From Eledone cirrhosa (Eukaryota), in NCBI GenBank assembly GCA_964016885.1, contig CAXHJY010001687.1, positions 62,001 through 126,000 of the forward strand: a stretch of DNA of 64,000 nucleotides, in the 5' to 3' direction. This document shows, in pieces, positions 1,006 to 56,046 of the stretch. Position 1 is the first letter of the stretch. Each line of letters opens with the position of its first letter. Both the position numbers and the translations under genes were made by a program. Under the pieces are notes generated by a model. It ran no database searches. It worked only from the letters and a program-made list of their open reading frames with translations, and had not been told where the DNA came from.

Positions 1006-1322
1006 TGCCCTTTGCCAACTCTCACTCTGTTGGTTGCACCTCCCCTCTGCATATTTTTGACCTCCTGGTGTCAATTCTCAGTAGCAGCTATTTTCTGCTC
1101 TTAATACGAACAACCTCAACTTCCCATCTCTTAAAAACTTTATACTTCTTTGAGCAAGCAACAAGACACTTTTCCAGAACACCATCCTTGCGAGACTGTT
1201 ACTGCAAGCTATGTTCAGAAACAGATAAAAAAAACACTCAAAGAAATGGTCAAATGTCATCTTTATTTTATTAATTTAAATATGATTTTCTAATGAAGTT
1301 TTAATTCTATTTTAAATTTTAG

Positions 1323-1451
1323 GTATTCTCCCGAAATCTCGATATCTTAAATATTCCTGTCTGGATACACCTCCAGTTCTGGCTGTTTTATCTATGGGTT
1401 ATAAACGAAATGTAGTCAAAAGAGTAGTGAAAAATAAAATCAAAGAAACAG
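1323..1451 (+). CDS. IAP/BIRC-type gene, internal exon (UBA domain, first part)
   Basis: Pyrimidine tract and AG at 1321-1322, GT at 1452; 129 nt, phase 1-1; encodes ILPKSRYLKYSCLDTPPVLAVLSMGYKRNVVKRVVKNKIKETG, matching the IAP UBA pattern TPxVxAxLxMGF/Y. Confidence 0.85.
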
Positions 1452-2037
1452 GTAAACCTACTTACTGTTTTGTTTTCTTAATTATTTTCAATATACAAAA
1501 TGAAGCTATCCAATATGTGTTTAATTCATCACCATAACCATTAATGCTTTAACACATTTCTTCTATTCAGTGTGGATATTCTTTTATTGGTTCATTGGTT
1601 TCAGTCATTAGACTGTGGCCTTGCTGGGACAGTCTTGAATTGTCTACAAAATACAAAGGATTTTCTGTATATCTGCCCTTTATCATTTTATCTATGAAGT
1701 ACAAATTTATAAGATCTAATGTGATAACTTGGCTTAAATTCTTAAATTACGTAGATTTTTTTTCCCCTGGTATTTTTTTTATTTGTTATATTGTCATATC
1801 TTTCAAATTTTGTATATTTTTCAAATTTCTATCAGATATTTCGTAATTAATATATCAAAGTATATTTTCTCGTGGATATTTCATTGAAAACTTGCATTTG
1901 CTTTTTTAGTGGAAAATTCATTCAGTTATCTTTCTGCAAACTATCAAGTTAACCATCAATTTCTGGTTAATTTTGTCTTCTTTTAGTAAGTTTTTCAAGA
2001 AAGGGTGAATATAACTGTTTAGTAACTCCTTTGTTAA

Positions 2038-2240
2038 CCCTTTAACATTACTCTATTTACTGTTGTATTTTTGTGGTAAAAGCTTTACCTCACATAATTA
2101 TTTCACATGATATTGAATCTATGAGATTTTGATATTATTTATTTTGAGAACAATACCTTAACATTAGTATGAGCAGCCAGTTTGAACAGAAGGAGGTGAG
2201 GGAATTCTGGCCGGATATGGGCAGTTTAAATGCTAAAGGG
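2038..2240. mobile_element. piggyBac-like MITE
   Basis: TTAA on both sides; TIRs CCCTTTAACATT / AATGCTAAAGGG; homologous copy in opposite orientation at 9347-9545. Confidence 0.7.
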
Positions 2241-2651
2241 TTAATGAAGTTTCAGAACTATTATGTAAAAATATATTAACTGTAGGGTCAAATTTTCCGA
2301 ACTAATCTGTAAAAATATACCAACTATAGGGTCAAATAGATTAGAAGGGAATGATATTGTCAAAAACAAAATCCACTGCCACCACTAGAGTTTTTTATTA
2401 TTTGGTTTACACATTGATATTTCTGATTCAAACTGAAATTATGAAATGAGGCTGATAAGCTTTAATAAATACTTTATCAACTTATACTTTCCTCCAACAA
2501 AATGTTATTTGTTATAAGCCATCAATCTACACATTTATATATTTGAAATACAGATAGAGGCCTAAGAGAGCAATATAAGATTATGAATTTAAGGGTATAG
2601 AAGATTTGAATTATTCAAATATTTTACAAAGACTGATGTTTTTTTTTTCAG

Positions 2652-2789
2652 GTAATTCTTTTTCAAAAGCATCCCAGTTACTAGAAGCAATCCATAAATG
2701 CCCTGATTTTGATGATGATATTGAAGATGTAAGCGATGAAGAGGAGCCTGCCCAAACAACAATAAAAGCTGACACTGAAATGACAGCTA
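2652..2789 (+). CDS. IAP/BIRC-type gene, internal exon (end of UBA and acidic linker)
   Basis: T-tract CAG acceptor ending 2651, GTAAGT donor at 2790; 138 nt, phase 1-1; GNSFSKASQLLEAI continues the UBA helix in frame with the previous exon. Confidence 0.85.
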
Positions 2790-3479
2790 GTAAGTAAATA
2801 AGTGATTATTCCTCTATTTCTATATATATTGAAATGATTGTTAGTAAATATTAAATGATTCCTTTACTATCTATAAAAGTACTGACAGTGAAGTAGCTGC
2901 TACAAAGTGATCCGTCTCTTGTTTTTACATGGATATTAGATAGTTATTGATTCCAAGGCAAGGAAACATCCAGTCTTAAAACTTTCACTGTCTACACCAT
3001 ATTATCTTCAGTTTAAAAATAAATATCTGCTGTACTTTTCACTAAATTCACTAGCCAGAAACTAAGAAGAGAAAATGGCTTTAAAGTAGTTATAACTATC
3101 AACATCATCATCATTTTATTTCCACTTTCCTTGCTGTCATAGGTTGGATAGGTTGTCACAAGACAGGACAGATACCATGCCAAATTTCAGAATGGTTTCT
3201 ATAGCTGGAAGCCTTTCTTTCTGCCAACTAATTTATATTGTGTACTAAGTGTGTTTTATCGTGGCACCAGCACTACTACTTTACATCATGTACTGGGTGC
3301 ATTTTATCATGGCACCAGCACTATCACTTAAATGACACAAAGTCTAAAGAGGTTGTCATGTACTCAGTGAGACATTGTCTAGGTTCATTCTTCAACCTTC
3401 TTACAAGGTTTACTTAGTGTATTCCATCATGAAACCAACACAAGAGAAATTATCCCACCCACTGTAAGCTAAAAGAAAC

Positions 3480-4040
3480 TTCTCCATTCCATGCAGTCTA
3501 CAACCACTCACCACATTAACTTTCAGCCTCTAACTGACACTGCAGAACATTGACAAACCTCTTACTTTCTGCTCAAACTCTTGCTAAACTTGACATCTAA
3601 TTTCTTTTATAGTTACTTGGTATTGATCCTTGCTTTCCAGTTCTTTGTAACCTGTCTTTTAGTTTTTATGGCCCTATCCACAATAGTTTCACTACCATTT
3701 CACCTTCCTCAACCACCAATCTCATCTGTGCTCTTCAGTAGGTTATCTCATAAGAGTTTTTAGCAATTGTCTGTGTTATAGGGCACTAATTCTTCGACTG
3801 TTTTAGGTTTCTGTATGCATTTAACTTGTATTCTTAAGTCACTAACCACCATCTATGTTGGGTGGTATATTCTTCCCTAGGGTAAGTTTTATCACTTACA
3901 GCCATCTGCTTAATGTGTTTTCTAGTGAGAATAAAGTCAATCTGGTTTGTATGTTCTCCTGATTGGTGAGTGACCAGATGGCTGACTAGTTTCCTGAAGT
4001 TTGTGTGACAGGTTATCAAGTCATTTGCAACACAGAACAC
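3480..4040 (-). mobile_element. RTE LINE fragment (end of AP endonuclease and linker); continuation of 5230-5480
   Basis: FCVANDL..TNFRK..HLVTHQSG.HTNQIDFIL is the APE C-terminal motif set; colinear with the APE piece at 5230-5480. Confidence 0.75.
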
Positions 4041-4200
4041 TAACTCTAACCCTAACCCTTACCCTAAGAAAATTACTAAACCTAACACTGACCCTAACCC
4101 TAACCCTAAACATAACCCTAATTCTATCCCTAACACTAACACTAAACCAACCCTAACTCAAACTCTAATCTTCACCTAAATTGACGTAACCCTAAACCTA
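4041..4200. repeat. Degenerate interstitial telomere-type repeat (CCCTAA)n
   Basis: About 160 nt of CCCTAA / CTCTAA / CACTAA units. Confidence 0.85.
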
Positions 4201-4204
4201 ATTT

Positions 4205-5225
4205 ACATGTGGCTGTTGCAGTAAGCAGCAACTGCTCACAGGAAACAAGCGCTATCAAATTCTTGGAAGGTTTTATAGAAGCAGTAGACAGCTTCTGTCA
4301 CCTGATTGACCAAATCAGCAATGGAGGTGTGTGTTCCGAAAAGCACAGTAGCAAGAGTAAGAACAGAGTGGAGAAAGTTCAAGGAGCTACTACTGCTGCT
4401 AGCTACTAAAGGTTTTTCCCTCAAAATGAAGGGCACATTATATGATGTGTATATAGCAACAGCAATGTTGCATGGTATCAAGGACTGGGCGCTGTGTGCA
4501 GAAGACCTGCGAAGATTGGAAAGAAATGAAGCTTCCATACTTCAATGGATGTGTAATAGTAATGTAAATGAACTGGGAGAGAAACTGGGCATAAGAGGAA
4601 TCAGATGCAGTGTGCAAGAGAGGAGATTGCATTGGCATGGACATGTGATGCATATGAAGGATGACAGCTGTATAAAAAGGTGCAGAGTGCTCAAAGTTGA
4701 TAGAAGCTATGGAGTAGGAAGATCTAGCAAGACTCGGGGTGAGGTGATAAAAGCTGACCTTGCACAATTGCACCTCTCAAAGGCTATAGCACAGGACCAA
4801 AATCTCTGGTGTTATGCAGTAATACAGGAGACCTGCCTTCCCCTGTGCACGGGTTGAAGCATATATCTCCCACATCCCTAGATCTACTTCCCCAATCCCC
4901 ACACACCTTCCCACTGTAAAATAGTTGTGTAGGTGTCATGACAAAAAGCACCCAACCCACACTATAAAGAGGTCATGGAGGTGTCACGACAAAAAACACC
5001 CAGCCCACACTGTAAAGTGGTTGTGTAGGTATCACAAAACAAAGCACCCAGTACACATTGTAAATGTGGTTGGCGTTAGGAAGGGCATTCAGTCATAGAA
5101 ACCAAGCCAGAATCAGTTCTGTATGAGCAAGACACAGTCATCTGATCTGACTTGTCTCACCACAGGACAACTCGTCTAACCCATGCTAGCGTGGAAAATG
5201 GACATTAAACGGTGATGATGATGGT
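4205..5225 (+). mobile_element. 5'-truncated RTE LINE with 3' UTR and (GAT)n tail
   Basis: ORF 4306-4857 (WRKFKELL..LERNEASILQWMC..RRLHWHGHVM); family 3' UTR motif TTAGGAAGGGCAT; GATGATGAT tail. Confidence 0.88.
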
Positions 5226-5229
5226 GAAT

Positions 5230-5480
5230 ACCAAGTGCCTTGGTCCTTCTTCATTTCTCATACCAGGTCCATAACTTCCATGTATGCTGGTGTTGTCCAA
5301 TATGTTCATTGAAGCCACCAGTCAAGATATGTATATCATTTTTATTCATCATCAAGGTAATCTGCAAGAGAACCTCAAAGAAGTAGTCCTTCTTTTCATC
5401 TGTAAAGCCAGCTTGTGGTGCATATACAAAGATCAAACTGGTAATTGTATTATTCAAGACAAGTCTAAACTTAAAAATAT
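5230..5480 (-). mobile_element. RTE LINE AP-endonuclease fragment
   Basis: VYAPQAG...GGFNEHIG, a degenerate GDFNxHVG motif. Confidence 0.75.
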
Positions 5481-5537
5481 GTTAGTTGGCCTCAATAAGT
5501 TTAAGTATTTTCCTTGCATATCTGTTGATGCTTTTAA

Positions 5538-5744
5538 CCCACATTTGTTTCTCTGAAACAAAACCACCCTTTTTAAAGATTTCCTTCTTAAATCAAAACA
5601 TTTCAGTATAATTTTATATAAGAACATTTTGTCGTGTTATAAATATCATCTTAGTGAAATTATAATTTTAGTATATACTTATCAAATTTTTCATTAATTA
5701 CTTTAAATAAAGAATAACTCATTTGAAATATAGTAACTAAAGGG
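5538..5744. mobile_element. Second piggyBac-like MITE (degenerate)
   Basis: TTAA-CCC ... AAAGGG-TTAA ends about 207 nt apart. Confidence 0.45.
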
Positions 5745-5910
5745 TTAATTTAAAAAATATATTTCTTTATTTATTACATTTCATTGTATTTCACCAATAC
5801 ATTAATTCTTGATCATATTCATTCTTGATTTTCTTCTCATTATTTTGCATTCTATTATCATGTTTCTGACATTCAAACTGTAAATGTTTTTGTTTTTTTT
5901 TCAACATCAG

Positions 5911-6101
5911 ATGCTGATCTAGTTAAAGAAAATAATATGCTGAAAGAACTAAAGCTTTGTAAAATCTGTTTAGATGAAGAATTGAGTGTGGTGTTTTTAC
6001 CATGTGGCCATTTGGTCAGTTGTGCATCATGTGCACCTGCTCTCAGTAACTGTCCTGTGTGTCGACAAAAGGTCCATGGAATGGTTAAGACATTTTTCTG
6101 A
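5911..6101 (+). CDS. IAP/BIRC-type gene, terminal exon (C3HC4 RING E3 ligase domain)
   Basis: Acceptor ending 5910; NADLVKENNMLKELKLCKICLDEELSVVFLPCGHLVSCASCAPALSNCPVCRQKVHGMVKTFF-stop (TGA 6099-6101) is the typical IAP C-terminal RING. BIR exons would lie upstream of the window. Confidence 0.93.
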
Positions 6102-6258: not shown

Positions 6259-6593
6259 ACTATGTATAATTACTATTTTTTTTTCTAAAGTCTATGACAT
6301 TTAATTCAATAACCCTGTTTTGTTTTAGAAAGTTTAAAATTTTGTTTACTGCTCTCTAAATCTGTACACACAAACTCGAATGATTATTTTCTTAATTATT
6401 TTTTCAACTTGATCTCATATGGGAGAAAATTATCATCATCTATTGAATTAAGGATTAATTTGTGTTGATTGATTCTCCTTCTGATAAGAATTTTTTTCTG
6501 TCTGGTTTAAATATTCCATATATGTATGTATTTATATATGTGTGTGTGTGTATGTATGTATGTATGTATATATATATATATATTTATATATAT

Positions 6594-6685
6594 ATTTTAA
6601 AAAAGGAAAAGAATGGTTTCACTTGTAGTTCTAAACAATTTAATTTAATTTTATATGATTTTACAATTTAGTTTTGAAAATCTAG
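6594..6685 (-). repeat. Left arm of the inverted repeat flanking the fusion-protein retrocopy (PLE 3'-end-like)
   Basis: Reverse complement of about 8190-8290; abuts (TA)n on the left and the poly(T) tract on the right. Confidence 0.8.
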
Positions 6686-6743
6686 TTTTTTTTTTTGTTT
6701 TTTTTTTTTAAGCAGACAATGAAGACCACTGTCGGTTTTTCCG

Positions 6744-8117
6744 TCACCCTACATTACTTTATAGTGACTGACACAGAAAAACCACTGGAGAACGAGATAA
6801 ACAATGATAACGCCTATGAGAATGGTATTAATGATGCTAAGCAAAAGGGCAGGCAATCCAAATCAGCCTGAGAAAAGATCAGCAAATCCATGAAGAGACT
6901 TGAGTGAAATATGATGAATTTGGAACGTGGCATCCAATGCATTTTTGAGGTACATAGAGAACTTGTCAACCCAGGTCAAGTTCAGCAAGCTCTCATTCAT
7001 ATATTCAATCTTGATATCCAGGCATGTTACGCGGAAAGAAGCAGGGACGGAGATATTGTCAAGATGTTTGAAGTACCAATTAGGGAGGCCTGGGACAGAG
7101 ATTTTGTGCTTCTCGCTCTTGACTTACTGACCTACAAAAAACCCTTCAAATTGGTACAAACAATCCGCTATAGGGCAGATCATCAGAGTTCCTTCATAAA
7201 TCATGTGCAGGCCCTGAAGTGCCGCCTGAATATCATCAAGAGCAGGTCGTTTTCAAAAGCTACGGTGGAGGCGGTCCATGAGATTCTCCCAGTTTACGAA
7301 CCACTCGGGGATATACCCATGCTTGAATGACAGCTTCACATTTTTGGCGATCCTGTTTTAGGAGATGGACATGGAGCAAGGTATAATAATGCTCCAAGAG
7401 GCCGGCACAGCACATTGACGTGACCATACGTGCCATCACGAAAATAGCTTGCTGTGTTTCTCGTTTGAGAGTCTGTATTTCGGAGTGAAGACTGGTTTGG
7501 ACCGCACTCAATGCGGCAATAAGTTTGTCCAGGTTCCTCTTGGTCTCCTCATGAAACGCCTTCTCTGCCTCAATAAATTGGATCATCAGGTCCCTGAGTT
7601 GTTTCATAGTTAATCCTGTCTTCTGGAGCGTGATTTCAATATTATCGAAATTCTGGTTGATCTCGCACTCAAGAGCCTCCACTTTTGCTAGAGCGGCAGA
7701 GCCCACTCCCAGTCGACATAGCCAAGGATGAGGCCTGCGAATCGCTTCATATGTGGCTGGGGAGTCAGTAGACGAAGCAAACTACAATTCATCTGATGAG
7801 AGCAATGTATGGAAAGAAAGTTAGCTAATGAGTCCAAAGTGACTTGCGTTTCATCAGGAGCTTTATTGATGAAGATCACATAGGATTTGATAGAAGTTGG
7901 GATGACAAGAAATCCTTGATACTCAATCCACCCGCTGAGATCTTCATGCCAACCTTCCATATAAGGGGGAATGGCGGCTATCACATTGGTCTGGAGGTCG
8001 AGTTGTAGAACAAGATCTGTAGGGGGCTTGTCCTGGGATCAGGTTCTCCTGCCACCGAGAGTCGGTCGAAATGCCTGAAGCGATGGGACGAACGAAAGAG
8101 ATAAGGAAAAACAGCAT
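6744..8117 (-). pseudogene. Degraded class I (F-type) viral fusion glycoprotein gene; candidate endogenous viral element, about 455 codons
   Basis: Manual minus-strand reconstruction: ATG 8117 MLFFLISFVRPIASG (signal-like); HMKR/FAGLILGYVxLGVGSAALAKV (basic cleavage site and fusion peptide); long heptad helix (ORF 7260-7706); KHGYIPEWFVNWENLMDRL; sequons NCS, NIS, NES, NLT; TM FGLPALLLSIINTILIGVIIVYLVLQWFFC; stop 6744-6746. Three frameshifts (about 8040, 7712, 7355) and three internal stops (7253, 7124, 6863). Poly(A) at 6686-6709. Confidence 0.78.
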
Positions 8118-8189
8118 GTCGGAACAATCTTAAAAGACCAGTTTTTCCGTCACTGGATTCTGGGTGTTGGCTCTTGGGAGCTTATGTTC

Positions 8190-8327
8190 TGGAGTTTTAT
8201 TAAACTAAATTGTAAAATTATAATATTATAAAATTAAATTAAATTGTTTAAAACTACAAGTGAAGTCATTCTTTTCCTTTTTTTTAAATATACCTAATTG
8301 TACCAAGGATTTCACACATTTTCCAAT
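8190..8327 (+). repeat. Right arm of the inverted repeat flanking the retrocopy (PLE 3'-end-like)
   Basis: Inverted copy of 6594-6685 plus about 35 extra nt, ending in (TA)n; AT-rich ...AAGTGAA... layout like post-ribozyme pLTR segments elsewhere in the window. Confidence 0.75.
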
Positions 8328-26219: not shown

Positions 26220-29200
26220 ATATAAACAACTATCTGGTTGTGGAACCAACCAACCAACCAGAAATTTATAAATTTATAAATTTATTATAATAAATTGAAG
26301 TGAAAGCAACTGGTGCGTGTGTTTATTATTGGCAACATGACCCTCCCAAAGTATAACAATATCGGTTTCAACACTCGATTTCAGATAAAGAATCTTGCTA
26401 AACAAATTCAGAAACGAAATATCGTAAGCCTTAGCCAGGCTAACAAGATACTGAAAACCACCACCATGTTCTGTTGTCTACGAAAAACCATAACATCTCG
26501 ACAACTATCCTTCATAAAGCAGTGTGCCTCTTCCAGAATCTACACCAACACCATCAATACCGACGTTAGAAGATTACAACTCACCAAAAAACAAGCAGAT
26601 AGGCTAAAACGAACATTAATTCTAAACATAAAAAAGAAGATCTATAGAGAATTAAGTCATCAAGAAAAACAAAAGCGTAACCTAATACAAGAAATAGCTA
26701 GAATCACCACACCAAGAGAGAAACTAATATTTATAAGCCTTATACGCCCTGAAGAACAATACATTACTCAAGAATGTGATAAGCACTTTAACAGGAAACT
26801 AAAGTGGCTTAAACAGGCAAAGCTAAATCAGGATACTATAGAGTATACCAATAGATATCCCGACAAAATTGACGGTATCAACATGGCCGACACCTCATTA
26901 TCAGAAGAGTTCAACAACAAAAACACCAACATATATGGGAACACACAAAAATAGATAATGATGAAATGTCTGTGTTATGTTTGCCGCCGAAATTTGCGAC
27001 ATTCAAGAAGGTAAATATGATTAGTTGTCTGTCAGAAATAGAAAAATCATTTACAAAACTACGCTGGAGCCTCAAAAACAAAAACAAAAGCAACAATATA
27101 CGCACACACATATACAACACACATCCCAACAACAACAGATACACAGACACAAACAACAATAACAACAACACACACACCAACAACAACAACAACAACAATA
27201 ACAACATACCCAGAAACAACAACAAGACACGCAGACACAAACAACAATAACAACAACACACACACCAACAACAACAACAACAATAACAACATACCCAGAA
27301 ACAACAACAAGACACACAGACACAAACAACAATAACAACACACACAACAATAACACACACGGAGACAACAACAACACACATCAACAACAGCACACATCAA
27401 CAACAACAACACACACACATTCAATGCCTCTCACCACCACCACAATCTTAACAAACACACAGACACAGAAAACAAGTAATGACAGTAGCACAGAAATCAT
27501 AGAAATAAGGGAAAGTAATAGGATTAAAAAGAGAAGGGAGACTAAGGACAAAGAGAATAACCAAGACGAACACACAGACACACAAAATAGGGTAGATAAC
27601 AACAATGAGCCAGTGGAAAGAGACAGGAGTAATTGTGAGAGACATAGAAACAACCATGAGGCTGTTGGTGGAAATAGAAATAGAAACAACACAACTAACA
27701 ATAACAATAGCACTAGTACACATAAAGCAGCAGCCTGGAACTCTACGTTTTATAATCCCTCCGATAAATCATTCGACCTGCGACGAGTCCACGCCACGAC
27801 TTTACCATTTAACAAACGCACGCAATTGCCGTCGCAGGTCGATGAACAAACAGAAGCACAATTTAGTATAACTAGATCCGAACTTAGAAATATTATAGAA
27901 CAGTATAGCAAGAAGCATAATAGAATGGAGGCCCAGCAACTGGGAGAAAAATCTGCAAATGGCTTGCGTAAGCTCATGCAGCGCTCACGTAATGGAGAGA
28001 TAGCATGCTTTCCAACAGACAAGTCTGGCAGAATGTCGGCTGACAGCCTGCCAAACTACATCAGGCAATGCAACCCCACATCACTAACACAAGAGAGGTA
28101 ACACCACAGGAGCATGAGGATAGAGAAAAAGCCCTCAATGCCCATATGGTGATGTGGACGAATATAATGCAGCCCAACAAAAGGACTGCCAACAACTTCC
28201 AGGCCTGGAACAATGACGTGCCGGCGTTGTATGGGCTTCGAAAAGACCATAAAACGGGCTGTGACCCTGTCGCGGGACCACCAACACGGCCAGTCTGTGG
28301 AGCTAACATTGCTAGTAACTACAGACTGTCCTACTTCCTCTCCCTGATCATACGCCCCATCATTGAAATGTCCCCAGATGTATGTGACAGCACGGAGAAC
28401 CTCCTCAGCAGAATCGGCGTGAGTAACCGATCTGCATAATAGGCAGTATGGATGTTGTGTCCCTGTATCCATCTATTGGCGTGGATTTTGCTGTGGAGAA
28501 ATGCGTAGAAATGATCAGTGAGAGCAAGGTTGAGTTCCGTGGTATTGATACCAGTGAGCTGGGACTCCTACTTAAGATTATCTATAGTAATAATTACCTA
28601 GACACATATGACCTTAGCAATCTGTGCCCTACAAGACCAGCAAGAGGCAGACCACCTACCATTACCTCAATGGCCAAGAAAACCCATACAGATAGATGGA
28701 ACGGGTGGGCCAGAGCCATATGGACACCCGAAAACCACGATGAACTGAAGAAAATGATTGCACATGCGGTAGGGGCCAGCATAAAACTAACCCTTAAGGA
28801 ACATATGTTCAAATTTAATGGAAAAACATATGCCCAAGAGGAAGGAGCAGCCATTGGTGTTAGCATTGCAGGCGACATAGCTAACTTATTCATGGTATGG
28901 TGGGACAGTAGACTTAAACTTAAACTTAAAGAACAATTAGAAGACAGCTTAACCCTGATAATGTACTCCCGCTACGTAGATGATATAAACATCGTAGTTA
29001 AGACACCCCCACTAGAGAACAGTCAGGAACTAGAGAAAAACACAATGGAAAGCATCCAGCAAATAGCAAACTCCATCCACCAGAGCATTAGAGTTACTAT
29101 AGACTACCCAAGTAAACACCCCAACCATCGATTACCTGTACTAGACACAGAGCTCTGGTTAGATACCATTAACAACAAAAAACAAATCCTCCATTCCCAT

Positions 29201-30451
29201 TATGCCAAACCCATGACTTCCAAACATCTGATCCACCGAAACTCGGCCGTTTCGGACCATACCAAAATCAACATACTGATTGCGGATTTGGTACGGGTGA
29301 TGAGAAATGTGTCCCGCATGTGCAACCCCGAAGAACTAGAGAGACACATACAACACTTCATCCACCGTATGCAGTTCTCTGGCTACAATCAGAGAGATAA
29401 AATCAGAGTGTATAGAGGAGCCAGAACCAAATGGGAAAAAATGGTAAATAATGACATAAATGGGACCTGCCCCTTGTATAGGAGCAAATTTTGGAATAGA
29501 ATAGAAAGAACTAGGAACAAGGCTAATAGAATAAACTCATGGTATGATAGCAATAAATACCAGAGTGTAATGTTCATCGATACAACCCCTAGAGGTGAAT
29601 TAGCTTACAAATTTAGAAGGGCCCTAAATAAACATAAACTCAATATTAAGATAGTAGAAAGACCAGGTACCTCCGTAAAAACATTTATTAGCAAGACATA
29701 CCCGTAAAATAAGCCCCCATATTAACTGTAAAACTAGAAATGTAGTGTATAGCATAAGATGTACTGAAGGACAATGTAGAGACAAAAATATAGTGTACAT
29801 AGGTGAGACAGCTCGTAGTGTAGGGGAACGGATAAATGAACACTGGCGAGACCTTCAAGATAATAAAGAATCATCTGTACTCTACCAACATGCTAAGATA
29901 GAACACAAGGGTAAATTAGAGAACATAGAAATAAAAATAGAATCTACACACAGAAAAGACGCAATGTTTAGACAAATTACAGAGGCAATAAACATAAAAG
30001 AATTATAACCAAAATTAAATAGAAAATATGAGTGGAACAGCAACATCACAACTTACAATTAAGGACAAAATGAAAACACACACACACATAGAACAAACAA
30101 CCAACCAGTAGCATATAAATAAACAAATAGATAAATGAACATAAACACACACAGACACCCGGATGTGGCGCATGCGCAGACTGAGCACACAACACACACA
30201 CAGAAACAAAATGGCGTAGGATAGAACAAAGGAGAGGCACAGAAACAAAGAAAGGAATCCCCAGTCACTGAAGAGGTCACAGAGTGTGTGACGAAAGAAC
30301 TATGACTATATATAAACAACTATCTGGTTGTGGAACCAACCAACCAACCAGAAATTTATAAATTTATAAATTTATTATAATAAATTGAAGTGAAAGCAAC
30401 TGGTGCGTGTGTTTCTTATTGGCAACATGACCCTCCCAAAGTATAACAATA
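26220..30451 (+). mobile_element. Near full-length Penelope-like element (RT and GIY-YIG), disrupted, with direct pLTR repeat
   Basis: ORF pieces 26313-26954, 26966-27250 (LPPKFA), 27424-28101 (TDKSG), 28068-28439 (LYGLRKDHK..RPV), 28448-29707 (DVVSLYPSI, RYVDD, LPVLD), 29745-30008 (VYIGET). 26220-26362 repeats at 30310-30451, starting about 8 nt after the ribozyme cleavage site. AAC-rich expansion at 27075-27430. Confidence 0.93.
30263..30307 (+). ncRNA. Minimal hammerhead ribozyme in the 3' pLTR
   Basis: agtca CTGAAGA g gtcac..gtgac GAAA gaac TA tgact. Confidence 0.78.
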
Positions 30452-45241: not shown

Positions 45242-47704
45242 TTAGCTGTATACTTTGTGAAAAGTCCTATGGAATTTATGCAGGCAGATAGAAAACAAAT
45301 CTGTACGTCTATTTATTATAGAATCTAGATTAGAGATAATGGTAAATTTTTCATTTAGGCAGAGATTACAGATTTTAGATAGAGAGCTGTTCAAGTATGA
45401 GGACGCAGAAGAAACCTTCTTCCAAAAGATGGTATATTTAATGTTTTTGTCTTTCAAGGACCATATGAGTTCTGAAAGAGCCGTGTTGGTTCTTTTAAGT
45501 TTGTATTTAAAAGATGAATGGTGATTATAGAGACGAGCTTTAAAAGAGGTGGAAGTGGAGCCAAAATAGGTGAAGGAATTGGTGCTAGTTATAACTTTAC
45601 ATTCATAAATTAAGTTTTTATCAAGACAATGGTTGTTGAGAGGACATTTATTTTTAATGCGGCAGTTGCAATTAGAGAGATTATTAATGAGTGACCTAGT
45701 GTTATCTATAGAAGGAATTGGATTGGAGAAGTTGTTTGCGATAGGAATAATAGGAATAATAGTTTCTTGATTTAGAGTTGGATTATGAACATTTAGCGAA
45801 GTTGTGTTTGACGTTGTATTTGGGTTTACAGAAGTTAGCCTAGGGTTTACAATGACGTCGGGAGTACTATTACTGTTATTATGAAATTCAATGTTGGAAG
45901 GAAGAGATTTAGTATTTAGTATTTTATTGTTGTGTTTAGAGATGATGTTGGAAATATTGGAGGATGTAGAATAAGAAAATTTGATGGTGTGTTTGTTAAA
46001 TATTTTACTATAGATATGTGAGGGAGGGAAGCATTTATTTAAGGCACTAAAAAATAATTTAGGAATATTGTTACTAATAGAGATGGAGAAAGGAGCATTA
46101 TACCAGATTATGTTTTTGTATCTAGGTCTTTTATTAAAGTTATTGGAATGATCATGATTAATTATTCTACTGTAAGTTTTTCTAGAATTTGTTTCTTTAC
46201 TATATTTGATTTTATCTGGATAACCGGCTTTAGAAAGTGCGTTATTATAGTAATTGGCGTTAGCATCAAAGATGTTTTTATTAGAAGATATGTTGGATAT
46301 TCTTTTTCCAATATTACTAACTATAGCATTCTTGATATTGGTAGGATGGTTAGATTTAAAGTTAACATAATTTAGGTTCTCATTGTTTTTATGGTAAGGG
46401 TAATATAGGCCAGTGTCAAGATTAAGAGATACATCCAAGAAATTAGCTAGTTTGATACTATTATCAAATTCAATTTTTAGGTTATGTTGGTTAAAGAGAT
46501 TACGTATATTGTTCTTAATAATATTAAGGTTAACTATATTGCAATTTAAGATAGTAAAGAGTCCATCGTCACGATAAATTCCACCGCGAAGTTGAGGAAT
46601 TTTCCGACTCAAAGATTTCAAAATAAAGATACCAATTAAATCAGTCAATTGGGATGAATCGGATGCTCCCATTGTGATGTCGAAGTTGTTAGAGGTATCG
46701 GCTCTGGTCCAATATTCGTTGTTGAACTCTAGGATGGTTTTACGTGCGGTGAGGATGATGTGAAGTTCATCTGTGGTGATGTCAGAATATTTAAGTGCGA
46801 AAGATAGAGCATTATTGAGAAGTGAAGGCGAAATGGAGGAATAGTAGCTGGCAATATCAAATTGAATAAATTTTAGTTTGTTTTTATTATCCAATTTGTT
46901 GAACCAGCCAATCACTTCAGAAGTACCAAACCATAAATTTAGGTTCAAAGAAGAGCAATTAGAACTAACCTGTGGGATAATTCTATTCAAGATGGCTTTA
47001 CTAACAACCCCCAGATCAGATTTAGAGGGGGCGATTAATCTAACAGGAAGTTCAGTGCGAAAATTGTTTTTGTGATCCTTGAGATTTATCCTCGGAGTTC
47101 TTGGGAGGAATGGTTCGGTCTTTTTTTCAATGCCAAGTTTTGACATAATCTCAGAGGCTTCAAGGTTTATGTATTCTAAATTTTCATGGTTGGTTTTACG
47201 ATACTTTTTCCTAAGTTCCTTTAGGATAAGGTTGTTATAATTATCCTTGGAAATACCATATAAGTTATTGGTTTTGTCAGAGTGGACTAAAACATTTTTT
47301 GAGGAATTTAGGTTAGAAATTGTGTTCTTGAGATTTACAAGGTGCTCTTGTCCTTTGTAAGGGTATCTCTTGAATTTAAGATTTTTTATTATTTTAGTTA
47401 ATTCTTCCTCGAATTGTACTAGATTTTTGTTGGAAGGAGGATTTCGTCTAGAATTAAATAGATGATCGAGGAAGTTATGTTCTTTGGTACGGAAGTTCCC
47501 TTTTAGGCGCTGGTCATAGAAATAGGCTGTCCATCTAAGTCTTCTTACGAAGGAGTCAGTTTTTTCAATAAGAAGTTTGGTGAATTCAGATTTACCAGGT
47601 ATAGGAATGTCTTTAGTTGAATTGGTTATGTTGTAATAATCCATGTTGTAGAAAAATAGGTAAAAGACCATCAAAAGGTATCCAATATGAGAGTAAGCGC
47701 TCAA
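45242..47704 (-). CDS. PLE polyprotein, RT plus C-terminal GIY-YIG (Naiad-type); probable ATG at 47644
   Basis: STKDIPIP..RRLRW, SDKT, LKDHK..RLI.PSKSD, FDIASYYSSI, FDITMG, IYRDDG, NFLDV, CNC..CPL..CL, IYEC..YFGST, CNLCLNEK, CLH; no internal stops. Confidence 0.93.
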   Translation of the reverse strand: MSAYSHIGYLLMVFYLFFYNMDYYNITNSTKDIPIPGKSEFTKLLIEKTDSFVRRLRWTAYFYDQRLKGNFRTKEHNFLDHLFNSRRNPPSNKNLVQFEEELTKIIKNLKFKRYPYKGQEHLVNLKNTISNLNSSKNVLVHSDKTNNLYGISKDNYNNLILKELRKKYRKTNHENLEYINLEASEIMSKLGIEKKTEPFLPRTPRINLKDHKNNFRTELPVRLIAPSKSDLGVVSKAILNRIIPQVSSNCSSLNLNLWFGTSEVIGWFNKLDNKNKLKFIQFDIASYYSSISPSLLNNALSFALKYSDITTDELHIILTARKTILEFNNEYWTRADTSNNFDITMGASDSSQLTDLIGIFILKSLSRKIPQLRGGIYRDDGLFTILNCNIVNLNIIKNNIRNLFNQHNLKIEFDNSIKLANFLDVSLNLDTGLYYPYHKNNENLNYVNFKSNHPTNIKNAIVSNIGKRISNISSNKNIFDANANYYNNALSKAGYPDKIKYSKETNSRKTYSRIINHDHSNNFNKRPRYKNIIWYNAPFSISISNNIPKLFFSALNKCFPPSHIYSKIFNKHTIKFSYSTSSNISNIISKHNNKILNTKSLPSNIEFHNNSNSTPDVIVNPRLTSVNPNTTSNTTSLNVHNPTLNQETIIPIIPIANNFSNPIPSIDNTRSLINNLSNCNCRIKNKCPLNNHCLDKNLIYECKVITSTNSFTYFGSTSTSFKARLYNHHSSFKYKLKRTNTALSELIWSLKDKNIKYTIFWKKVSSASSYLNSSLSKICNLCLNEKFTIISNLDSIINRRTDLFSICLHKFHRTFHKVYS

Positions 47705-47799
47705 CCGTTAAGGAGCTTACAAATACGAATAATTATAGGGGGGGAAGGGGGATTAAAATTATTAGTGGTAAATAGTAAATATAGGTTTCAAGGAACATA

Positions 47800-53536: not shown

Positions 53537-53601
53537 ATATATAGTATTAATTGTACTATTAACTGCTCCTTATTGTTGAGCTGACATATAATATTACCAA
53601 T

Positions 53602-56046
53602 ATGCTAATCAAAGACCAACTCCCCATGTCAACCAAGAAAATACCAATACCATCCAGGAATACATATGAGAAATTGATGATCAACAGTGTAAATTCATTT
53701 ATCAATAGAGTGAGATGGAGGGCATTCCATTATGATAGAAACAGATCTAACAACGTGAATAATACTAACCAATTTGACTCCTTCGGTTTTAAAACCTTTA
53801 AAAGCCCCCCTCATAACACACTACTTAACTCCTTTGAAAATGACCTAGTTAAACTAGTTAAGAACATTAAATACAATAAGCACCATATTAGAAGCAACAC
53901 CTTCTTAAACAAACTTAACACCTCTATTAATGGATTCAAAACTAGTAATAAAATTATTGTACACGCAGATAAAACTAATAACATATACAGCCTAGATTAT
54001 AATACTTATAGAAAATTTATATATAATGAACTACATAAAAGCTACAAAAAGACCACCTTGAAAAACTTAGAAGATATTAATATAGAGGGATATAATATAG
54101 TGTCTAAACTAGGACTTCAGAGACTTACACAACCATTCACCCCAAACCCCCCTAGATTCTCTCTGAAGGACCATAAGGAGGACTTCATCAGCAACCCCTC
54201 GATAAGACTTATCTGCCCTTCCAAGTCCGACATTGGTAGTATCAGCAAGAAAATCTTGGATAAAATCATCCCACAAATTAAACACAAGATACACCTTAAA
54301 CAATGGGGAAATACGGGTGAAGTGATTGAATGGTTCAAAGATATCAAGAATAATAAGGACAAAAAATGTATTCAATTTGATATCAATTCATACTACACCT
54401 CTATTTCCCCTATCCTATTAAATAAGGCACTTATCATGGCCATGAACAATAGCGACCTGACTAGAGCCCAGATTGATGTCATCCTTGGGGCCCGTAAAAC
54501 CATAATCACCTTCGAAGACCAACTATGGACACGCAAGGATACGCACAACAACTTCGATATAACCATGGGATCTAGTGACTCGGCGCAAGTCACTGATTTG
54601 GTCGGCCTATACCTTCTCAATGAAATCCATAAGGACCTCCCTTACCTCAACGGTGGTGCACTTCTACTTATAGAATATAAAAAATTTAATATAGAACGAG
54701 CTAGAAAACAATTGCATAAGACATTCAAAAACTTTAACCTTAGTATCACCATGGACAAAAACACTAAAAATGTAAACTTCCTAGACGCCACACTATACCT
54801 AGACTCAAAAATATATACACCTTTCCATAAGCCTAACGAAAAACTCATTTACGTAGATACTAAGTCTAATCACCCTAGATCAATATTAAACTCTATCTCT
54901 AAGGGGGTATCCAATAGAATCTCTAGCCTGTCCTATGACGCAAACATATTTAGCAAAAACTCACAATATTACAATCAAGCATTAGCTAGATCCGGCCATA
55001 ATATAGAAATTGAGTTCCTACCTAAGAAAACACATAGCTACAACATCATCTCGCACAACATGTCCATGAGGAAACCTAATAATAGGAATAGCAACCACAA
55101 GTACACCAAAGCGGAGGGTGCCACCGGAAGTAACCATTACCACGCAAACTACTGTGGTGCCGTAGGAAGCAACAACACACCAAACACTAAAAGCAAAAAT
55201 AGAAGAAGAAATAATACTTTTTTCAACCCTCCTTTCAACCTAAATGTCTCCACCAACATACCTAGGGCTTTCTTCTCACTACTAGATAAAAACTTCCCTC
55301 TAGGACACAAGTACCACAACCTTTTAAACAAAAACACTATTAAAATCTCATACTCTACGACGCCTAACTTAGCATACCACATAGCTAGCAGTAATAAAAA
55401 TAAAATTAATTCTTACTTCCAACAAACGAAATCACAACAGGATCCAAACCTTCTAAATACCACTGTAGCAAGCAACCATAGTAACGGCAGTAACAATAGA
55501 AATAACACTAGTATAAGAAATAACACTGGGGTTGACAACCAGAATGTCCAAAATCCTATAGCTACCACCCAGACTTCTGCACTGCATTATAACCTGCAAA
55601 CTAACACACAGGATAATTGCAACTGTAGAGCTAATAGAACCTGCCCTTTGGATAAAAAATGCCTAACCAAGGATATCATATACTCATGCACCGTCACAAC
55701 TAGCAACTCTTCAGAAACCTATGTAGGCTTCACTTCTAACAGCTTCAAAATCAGATATAATTCGCACATCCACTCGTTCAAAAAGCACAGCCTAGCTAGC
55801 TCCACCTCACTATCTAGCTACATACACTATCTAAAAACTAAAAATAAACCATACACACTCAAATGGGAAGTGATAGGCAGCGCGACTTCGTACAAACCAC
55901 CTAATAAATTTTGTAACCTCTGTATACTAGAGACCCACAATATTATCTTCTCCAACTGTAACCTACTTAACAAAAAATCTGAGGTGTTTGCAACTTGCCA
56001 GCACCGCTTCAGACATTCCTTCCAAAACTTTAAGCCCAATATATAG
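53602..56046 (+). CDS. PLE polyprotein, RT plus GIY-YIG (Naiad-type), lacking the catalytic YxDD motif
   Basis: Colinear with the 45242 ORF (STKKIPIP, ADKT, LKDHK, FDINSYYTSI, FDITMG, NFLDA, CNC..CPL..CL, YVGFT, CNLC) but reads LNGG-ALLL where the other reads LRGGIYRDDGLF. Confidence 0.9.
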   Translation: MLIKDQLPMSTKKIPIPSRNTYEKLMINSVNSFINRVRWRAFHYDRNRSNNVNNTNQFDSFGFKTFKSPPHNTLLNSFENDLVKLVKNIKYNKHHIRSNTFLNKLNTSINGFKTSNKIIVHADKTNNIYSLDYNTYRKFIYNELHKSYKKTTLKNLEDINIEGYNIVSKLGLQRLTQPFTPNPPRFSLKDHKEDFISNPSIRLICPSKSDIGSISKKILDKIIPQIKHKIHLKQWGNTGEVIEWFKDIKNNKDKKCIQFDINSYYTSISPILLNKALIMAMNNSDLTRAQIDVILGARKTIITFEDQLWTRKDTHNNFDITMGSSDSAQVTDLVGLYLLNEIHKDLPYLNGGALLLIEYKKFNIERARKQLHKTFKNFNLSITMDKNTKNVNFLDATLYLDSKIYTPFHKPNEKLIYVDTKSNHPRSILNSISKGVSNRISSLSYDANIFSKNSQYYNQALARSGHNIEIEFLPKKTHSYNIISHNMSMRKPNNRNSNHKYTKAEGATGSNHYHANYCGAVGSNNTPNTKSKNRRRNNTFFNPPFNLNVSTNIPRAFFSLLDKNFPLGHKYHNLLNKNTIKISYSTTPNLAYHIASSNKNKINSYFQQTKSQQDPNLLNTTVASNHSNGSNNRNNTSIRNNTGVDNQNVQNPIATTQTSALHYNLQTNTQDNCNCRANRTCPLDKKCLTKDIIYSCTVTTSNSSETYVGFTSNSFKIRYNSHIHSFKKHSLASSTSLSSYIHYLKTKNKPYTLKWEVIGSATSYKPPNKFCNLCILETHNIIFSNCNLLNKKSEVFATCQHRFRHSFQNFKPNI

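Follow-up and report, generated by a model that had tools for sequence, protein, structure and literature searches.

A decayed gene resembling a class I viral fusion glycoprotein, probably captured as RNA between the inverted ends of a Penelope-like element in the genome of Eledone cirrhosa

Results

A broken reading frame behind an IAP-like gene

The window (the whole stretch of DNA analysed, 64,000 nucleotides of the E. cirrhosa genome) includes an IAP-like gene (window 1322-6101 and L122), whose BIR domains lie upstream of the window and whose last (RING) exon occupies 5911..6101 on the plus strand. Sequencing reads reveal close paralogues of this gene, and one of its introns harbours a degenerate (CCCTAA)n telomere-like tract (4037-4200). 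Approximately 490 bp past its stop lies an insertion composed of a short arm (6592..6685, minus strand), an island of 1.5 kb (6686-8194), 7 nt of A-rich filler joining the long arm to the cargo (8195..8201, minus strand), and a long arm (8202..8326, plus strand). The GC content is 42-48% across 6751-8250 compared to 23-33% in the adjoining DNA, and the minus strand of the island, opposite to the host gene, carries an intronless, decayed and viral-like open reading frame (ORF) of about 455 codons. The minimum number of stops plus frame changes between the ATG (8117) and the last codon is 6, compared to 11.1 ± 1.8 in shuffled sequences (6 of 1000 dinucleotide shuffles reach 6), and the opposite strand of the island requires 10. 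The GC-richer, intronless, broken 1.5-kb ORF of a preliminary description, made from the letters of the DNA, was thus borne out.

Read along the minus strand, the island begins with a 5′ non-coding stretch of 77 nt (8118..8194), followed by the ATG (8115-8117) and a short hydrophobic start (8039..8117; hydropathy 1.28), a candidate signal peptide with a break directly after it. The F2-like piece (7713..8038) contains one sequon, two cysteines, the basic KR site (7742-7747) and the first half of the putative fusion peptide, with a break near 7712; the middle piece (7263..7712) contains the second half of this peptide and the putative HR1 (~7506-7694), with another break in ~7200-7300; the C-terminal piece (6749..7252), interrupted by in-frame stops at ~7126 and ~6865, would encode the ectodomain with three sequons, HR2 (~6869-7015), the transmembrane (TM) segment (~6791-6847) and a short tail, down to the stop (6749-6751). 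A 3′ non-coding stretch (6710..6748) and an A-run (A12 C A11, 6686..6709), both on the same strand, complete the island. The order is therefore hydrophobic start, KR/FAGLILGYV, LGVGSAALAKV, long helix, sequons, TM segment and short tail, and all of those elements that had been picked out beforehand (the two peptides, the sequons, the TM segment, the tail) are present. The 3′ non-coding stretch had been given as 35 nt and measures 39 nt; its lack of AATAAA stands. The inverted flanking arms and a duplicated 13-mer had been overlooked.

The island gives one match in the 3.0-Gb assembly as DNA, and its middle piece gives one match as protein (both copy counts are lower bounds). The short-read contigs assembled from X1-X3, runs on two samples from a single study, contain the island without any differing letter and continue into both arms, which excludes an assembly error and confirms the island as a real single-copy genomic feature. 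The RAD run X5, from another study, includes reads 1-3 deep at 7644-7817, and no island reads were found in RAD runs X6 and X7.

Aligned over 83 sites, the arms show 5 differences, about 3% each. At 3% per arm, 424 codons should have gained approximately 1.5 new stops; 2-3 are observed, a count near expectation that fits the neutral decay of a gene intact on arrival; the captured copy would have decayed more or less neutrally and would make no protein. Run X1, which lacks an RNA record and whose contigs carry no strand information, contains spliced IAP joints; its depth is 2-6 over the introns, 22.5 over the last-exon contig and 36.5 over the island. None of the runs listed as RNA among those searched carries the island. 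Read-through of the IAP-like gene likely transcribes the island, which would give RNA antisense to the viral frame.

Fusogen-like features of the predicted protein

The TM segment has a hydropathy of 2.73 over 19 aa (1200 of 45014 shuffles reach the same criterion) and folds as a helix with a pLDDT of 73-89 in the single-sequence fold of the C-terminal piece; the broken ORF includes four N-glycosylation sequons. The hydropathy of the KR/FAGLILGYV stretch is below the preset fusion-peptide cut-off, which 4883 of 45014 shuffles (11%) reached. As to the 80-residue heptad helix of the preliminary description, the long helix stands and the heptad periodicity is by itself borderline, the observed values being reached by 99/2000 and 132/2000 shuffles.

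A language-model search with the piece ending at the basic site ranks Fusion_gly clusters first and second (0.90 and 0.89). PF00523 accounts for 16% of the members of the former, which also includes 12% TLV_coat, and for 70% of the latter. The next neighbours are an unnamed cluster, retroviral env, baculovirus F, gypsy env and haemagglutinin, so that seven of the eight top rows shown fall in class I fusogen families; the Baculo_F, Gypsy env and TLV_coat clusters score 0.82-0.83. Since recognition is low (1283, with 4-10 in 100 shuffled proteins reaching 0.9), the Fusion_gly ranking counts as weak, though the family had been named beforehand. The middle piece gave no usable hit in this search.

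A bundle of three HR1 and three HR2 was predicted with a score of 0.68, against 0.00 for the best of three controls; the runs agree in at least 93% of the contacts, with a partner pLDDT of 72 or more, and the best contacts are antiparallel across ~63 and ~49 residues. The score mark, reached by 51 of 78 solved pairs and 2 of 108 mismatched pairs, comes from a calibration unlike the 3+3 job, and the score may reflect likeness to solved fusogens and cannot separate F from env. The predicted HR1/HR2 pairing shows likeness to a trimer of hairpins, which is not proof of binding. The single-chain folds are uninformative on the fusogen reading: the middle piece folds as a single long helix (pTM 0.38) without any BFVD match at E 0.001, and the C-terminal piece has a pLDDT of 44.

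From these predictions we are confident that the island gene encoded a class I fusogen. The class I fusion glycoprotein of the preliminary description finds support in the language-model neighbours and the 0.68 bundle, but in none of the alignment-based searches. An F-type protein accounts better than retroviral or filoviral TM subunits for the short N-terminal subunit and the ~160 residues that separate HR1 from HR2. The predicted protein, ~455 residues overall, would have a signal peptide, a short F2, cleavage after KR, a fusion peptide and an HR1 trimer, into whose grooves HR2 would fold back ahead of the TM anchor.

Searches for relatives

The Pfam HMM search with the island pieces gave no match at the cut-off, with PF00523 (Fusion_gly) not matched by these fragments, and only coiled-coil rows below threshold (for example Vps53_N, E 0.001); the PF00523 profile search of the whole genome found no match, the search control being likewise silent. 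Among PDB sequences no relative of the island pieces was found, the best rows being importin (E 0.009) and ExoIII (E 0.05); the latter, with the N-terminal piece, was treated as chance because Pfam gives no such family. The protein similarity searches with the middle piece in a 5.8-billion set, including longer and near queries, returned no homologue, and neither did phmmer among 1.84 billion representatives with one frame holding only the first and last pieces, where the lone hit was rejected since it falls in an out-of-frame stretch. The viral and metagenome contigs searched with the island gene contained no relative and no exogenous virus. At the sequence level, phmmer, HMM and tblastn searches found no homologue of the gene in the libraries covered.

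The copied RNA

A 13-mer ending in GAAAAAC (GTGACGGAAAAAC), followed by TGGTCTT, is present twice: 36 nt ahead of the ATG (8134-8153) and 1 nt past the stop (6722-6747), with spacers of 0 nt in the 5′ copy and 6 nt in the 3′ copy between the two elements. This 13+7 pair is reproduced by 0 of 5000 shuffles and occurs only at these two places in the genome; the literature search with the motif matched no described virus and returned one unrelated paper. A stop signal ending in A5, a variable spacer and a restart signal are the look of a mononegavirus gene junction, which the 13+7 motif would resemble by analogy.

The A-run is 24 nt long including one C, with neither AATAAA nor ATTAAA in the preceding 120 nt, and may be an mRNA tail or an A-run made at the junction. 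The preliminary description took it as the tail of a polyadenylated mRNA produced by stuttering on a U-tract, which is possible; given the junction-like motif that flanks the ORF on either side, stuttering is not required to explain the A-run. If the motif is a gene junction, the template covered two junctions and the A-run stands ~19 nt into the next unit, indicating a read-through or a tailed fragment rather than a plain mRNA. Against stuttering as the sole source, another locus (L040) carries A12 at the same arm junction without cargo.

Flanking arms of a Penelope-like element

The preliminary description proposed no mechanism of integration; the flanks of the island point to a Penelope-like element. 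They are inverted repeats belonging to an arm family with 1365 candidates genome-wide. Both arms terminate in (TA)n; the long one, an inverted copy of the same Penelope-like end, has a tail of 34-35 nt (~8292-8326), and the short one, the 3′ end (pLTR) of the element, has none and abuts the A-run with its inner CTAG. Eleven other arm loci comprise five that extend into more of the element, four empty hairpins, one cut short and one (L006) with foreign cargo. At the RT loci of the family other than the query, the arm or its upstream sequence was found within 1.5 kb in 11 of 19: eight inverted at the 5′ side, two direct behind the ORF, and one (L054) with the tail running into the ORF start. A DNA-transposon reading of the arms (MITE or Pack-TIR) was dropped once they had been found beside Penelope-type RT ORFs.

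The element ORF contains RVT_1 (E 2e-12) and GIY-YIG (E 5e-6) domains, with a Cys finger (CxxxxCxxC) ahead of the nuclease in L050 and L057, a trait described for Neptune and Nematis (PMC8557442). Judged by the Cys finger and GIY-YIG traits alone, independently of a tree, the arm-bearing element is likely of the Neptune type. Inverted ends, a tail of 30-40 bp and a (TA)n bias are reported as Penelope-like hallmarks (PMC8557442, PMC3846280), and in vitro two RT start sites flank the Penelope tail and both target strands are extended (PMC11167929). The insertion in the window combines the ends of an RT plus GIY-YIG element, inverted pLTRs, a tail on one end and a microsatellite target.

Three further Penelope-like ORFs are located in the window (28427-29707, 45242-47707 and 53563-56046), in two of which the nuclease is preceded by long Asn-rich stretches like those reported for rotifer Penelope (PMC3846280). 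Read inwards, the arm (e.g. L010:1384-1400) also presents an acceptor-like signal, TTTTGTAG, and a donor-like GTAAGT around the cargo-joining palindrome.

Other cargo between the arms

The foreign cargo of L006 (508-1622; G000:C24:10738100-10739240) is a spliced, 3′-truncated Rab2-like cDNA (Ras family, E 7e-19) between the same arms as the island, with its first 79 nt inverted and four exons that map to the parent gene at sites 8-14 kb apart. It is joined at ACTAG, with neither A-run nor duplication, and a LINE insertion into an old hairpin cannot account for it for this reason. One arm of this locus is split by a younger repeat.

A pattern search for arms broken at ACTAG gave six matches: L042 and L046 hold RT pieces that end at different codons at the same joining point, L040 has A12 only and no cargo, and the three others contain short or tandem filler. 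As the pattern itself fixed the break point, these six matches indicate recurrence and not a hotspot, and the tally of inner ends is crude and biased. In the window, L040 and L046, one arm stops at the same TTT and A-rich letters come next; only one exact A12-CTAG copy exists in the genome. AAAACT flanks the cargo of the window on both sides, as a candidate target duplication, and A(A/T)AAAACT at both junctions resembles a duplication of 6-9 bp, for which the L040/L046 filler is an explanation too.

Viral fossils elsewhere in the genome

PF00946 matches eight stretches at four places, a count that is a floor since it derives from a stricter first look. The nearly complete copy (G000:C3:130160114-130164811; L069, L070, L072, L078) is a broken rhabdovirus-like L gene of near 4.8 kb (PF00946, 496 bits; VSV L, E 7e-137) whose end carries a short internal duplication. 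The second place (G000:C27:16993500-16998800; L082:3497-8782) has rhabdovirus L pieces, 74-77% similar to the nearly complete copy, that are partly inverted and include an 83-bp tandem array; on either side, in (TA)n, stand tailed arms in inverted orientation that belong to a second Penelope-type family. A tail of ~40 nt is optional in this second family (14 of the 26 loci examined carry it), and in L110 and L116 pieces of the Penelope ORF are joined at the same palindrome. The third place (G000:C23:16220900-16222900; L080:4930-6920, minus strand) is a very divergent mononegavirus-like L fragment, apparently with GDD and not GDN, for which no homologue was found and the PDB rows are weak (E 0.002). 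The fourth (G000:C3:37502164-37502541; L081) is a short L fragment (E 8e-8). No Penelope arms were seen at the three places other than C27, indicating that Penelope is one route and not the sole route for these fossils.

The F-like gene of the island is not linked to any of the L fossils. Rhabdovirus G belongs to class III, which makes a rhabdovirus an unlikely source of an F-type gene. The C23 fragment is a candidate for an unlinked partner of this gene, and base composition gives no tie between it and the island. A metapneumovirus-like glycoprotein is reported in a tunicate chu-like virus, and a GDD polymerase is reported basal to those of paramyxo- and pneumoviruses (bioRxiv 2024.12.15.628590); by analogy the source virus may possibly have been chu-like or a basal mononegavirus.

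Discussion

Origin of the island

The reading that we favour, with moderate confidence when taken as a whole, is that the island is a decayed F-type gene, derived from a negative-strand RNA virus and brought in by a Neptune-type Penelope-like element. Taken separately, the capture by a Penelope-like element is highly probable, and the derivation from an F-type gene of a negative-strand RNA virus is fairly probable. The element would nick both strands of the target and start cDNA at two sites, with and without the tail; after ~95 nt, one cDNA would jump at the palindromic ...TAGATCTA... point to the 3′ end of the viral RNA, would copy 1.5 kb, and would then join the other cDNA via the A-rich filler. 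Template jumping to a separate RNA has been demonstrated for the R2 RT (PMC8857657), and the material examined includes no such demonstration for Penelope.

The same Penelope capture might instead have acted on the env transcript of an errantivirus/baculovirus-F-type LTR element, or of some other F-bearing element that has since disappeared from the genome. A short N-terminal subunit and a six-helix bundle are found in such env proteins too, and the Baculo_F, Gypsy env and TLV_coat clusters at 0.82-0.83, together with the 12% TLV_coat in the top cluster, are what this origin would predict; LTR elements are moreover reported to capture viral glycoproteins (PMC7642597). We nevertheless regard it as unlikely, although worth serious attention, given the single match in 3 Gb as DNA and as protein (lower bounds), the lack of LTR, gag or pol beside the island (it neither sits between pol and a 3′ LTR nor has related copies), the junction-like motif unique to the island, and Fusion_gly ranking on top. 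A viral origin over an LTR env, as preferred in the preliminary description, is accordingly favoured by the single copy, the absence of adjoining LTR or gag-pol and the mononegavirus L fossils, and is unproven. Alternatively, an ordinary LINE could have placed a viral mRNA by target-primed reverse transcription into an older, empty Penelope-end hairpin: A(A/T)AAAACT at both junctions is like a duplication of 6-9 bp at a TT/AAAA site, the empty L040 copy with its A12 spacer offers a plausible target, and RTE-type LINEs are abundant within the window. This becomes distinctly improbable, as the cargo of L006 and L046 is joined at the same arm point without A-run or duplication, L046 shares the A-rich filler after the other arm, the one exact A12-CTAG copy genome-wide implies no such subfamily, and the Rab2 cargo itself takes part in an inversion.

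Two other sources of the RNA deserve mention. A class I spike gene from a positive-strand or segmented RNA virus, the motif then being a transcription-regulating or terminal sequence, would fit a genuine poly(A) behind a short UTR, as well as the position of the motif, 36 nt ahead of the ATG. The language-model neighbours are however mostly Negarnaviricota, no ORF stands behind the second motif copy, and nidovirus spikes are unlike the short N-terminal subunit seen here, so that such a source is very unlikely, even though glycoproteins are reported to pass between virus orders (bioRxiv 2024.12.15.628590). Least probable is a processed pseudogene of a host coiled-coil membrane protein, a reading largely refuted: the same arms do capture host mRNA (L006) and coiled-coil Pfam rows appear below the cut-off (Vps53_N, E 0.001), but the genome contains no parent gene or exon match at the ~3% divergence expected, whereas the Rab2 parent was found readily, and the predicted structure is a trimer of hairpins.

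More tentatively, and in our judgement somewhat short of probable, the Penelope-like elements of the cephalopod germ line may form a general RNA-capture machine that jumps at fixed palindromes to host and viral RNAs, and that has here recorded an unknown negative-strand virus with a compact mollusc F; the copy, antisense in a hairpin-ended IAP transcript, could feed antiviral small RNAs.

Comparison with known systems

Non-retroviral viral fossils are a known kind of insertion (PMC5497376, PMC6580184, PMC7642597), and for RNA viruses, LINEs or LTR elements are the vehicles usually named, mostly on grounds of proximity. Vehicle ends joined to cargo in two element families and for two kinds of virus would make the Penelope route testable genome-wide, as well as in the existing in vitro Penelope system. 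Penelope capture would be a little-noticed way for RNA viruses to fossilise in animal DNA and, if the favoured reading is true, the island documents that a mollusc virus had an F-type fusogen. One proposal is that paramyxo- and pneumoviruses acquired their class I fusogens when they moved to vertebrates (bioRxiv 2024.12.15.628590). Our literature search, which covered few subscription journals and no preprint supplements, found no Penelope-framed viral inserts, no octopus elements of this kind and no mollusc F-type gene.

The predicted protein resembles the F of paramyxoviruses and pneumoviruses (PF00523) in the order of its parts, the short N-terminal subunit, the basic site before a hydrophobic peptide and the predicted antiparallel HR1/HR2 bundle, and PF00523 provides the nearest language-model clusters, yet no HMM match for the island fragments. 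Paramyxovirus and pneumovirus F proteins have roughly 550 residues and a Cys-rich domain, whereas the island protein has ~455 residues, ~160 of them between HR1 and HR2, seemingly lacks the F Cys-rich domain, and comes from an invertebrate host. Pneumovirus-like glycoproteins are reported in the Ciona chu-like and Tasmanian devil chu-like viruses (Jingchuvirales; bioRxiv 2024.12.15.628590, 2024.11.25.625296). The former is a negative-strand virus outside the paramyxo-/pneumoviruses and occurs in a marine invertebrate (bioRxiv 2024.12.15.628590); the GP gene of the latter (TDCV) has 2226 bp versus ~1370 in the island (bioRxiv 2024.11.25.625296).

Host genes moved in trans by Penelope in Adineta vaga share with the island the pLTR frame, the inverted ends, the tail and the palindrome at the inner junction (PMC3846280); in that description the rotifer cargo kept its introns and lies between direct pLTRs with a TSD, whereas the cephalopod cargo is a spliced host mRNA or a viral RNA, between inverted ends and in (TA)n. 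The non-retroviral EVEs of mosquitoes and ticks are likewise RNA-virus genes, often of glycoproteins, copied by a retrotransposon RT, probably by template switching; they are tied in these reports to LTR elements or LINEs by proximity, Penelope appearing in tables only (PMC5497376, PMC6580184, PMC7642597), while in the island the ends of the vehicle are joined to the cargo base by base.
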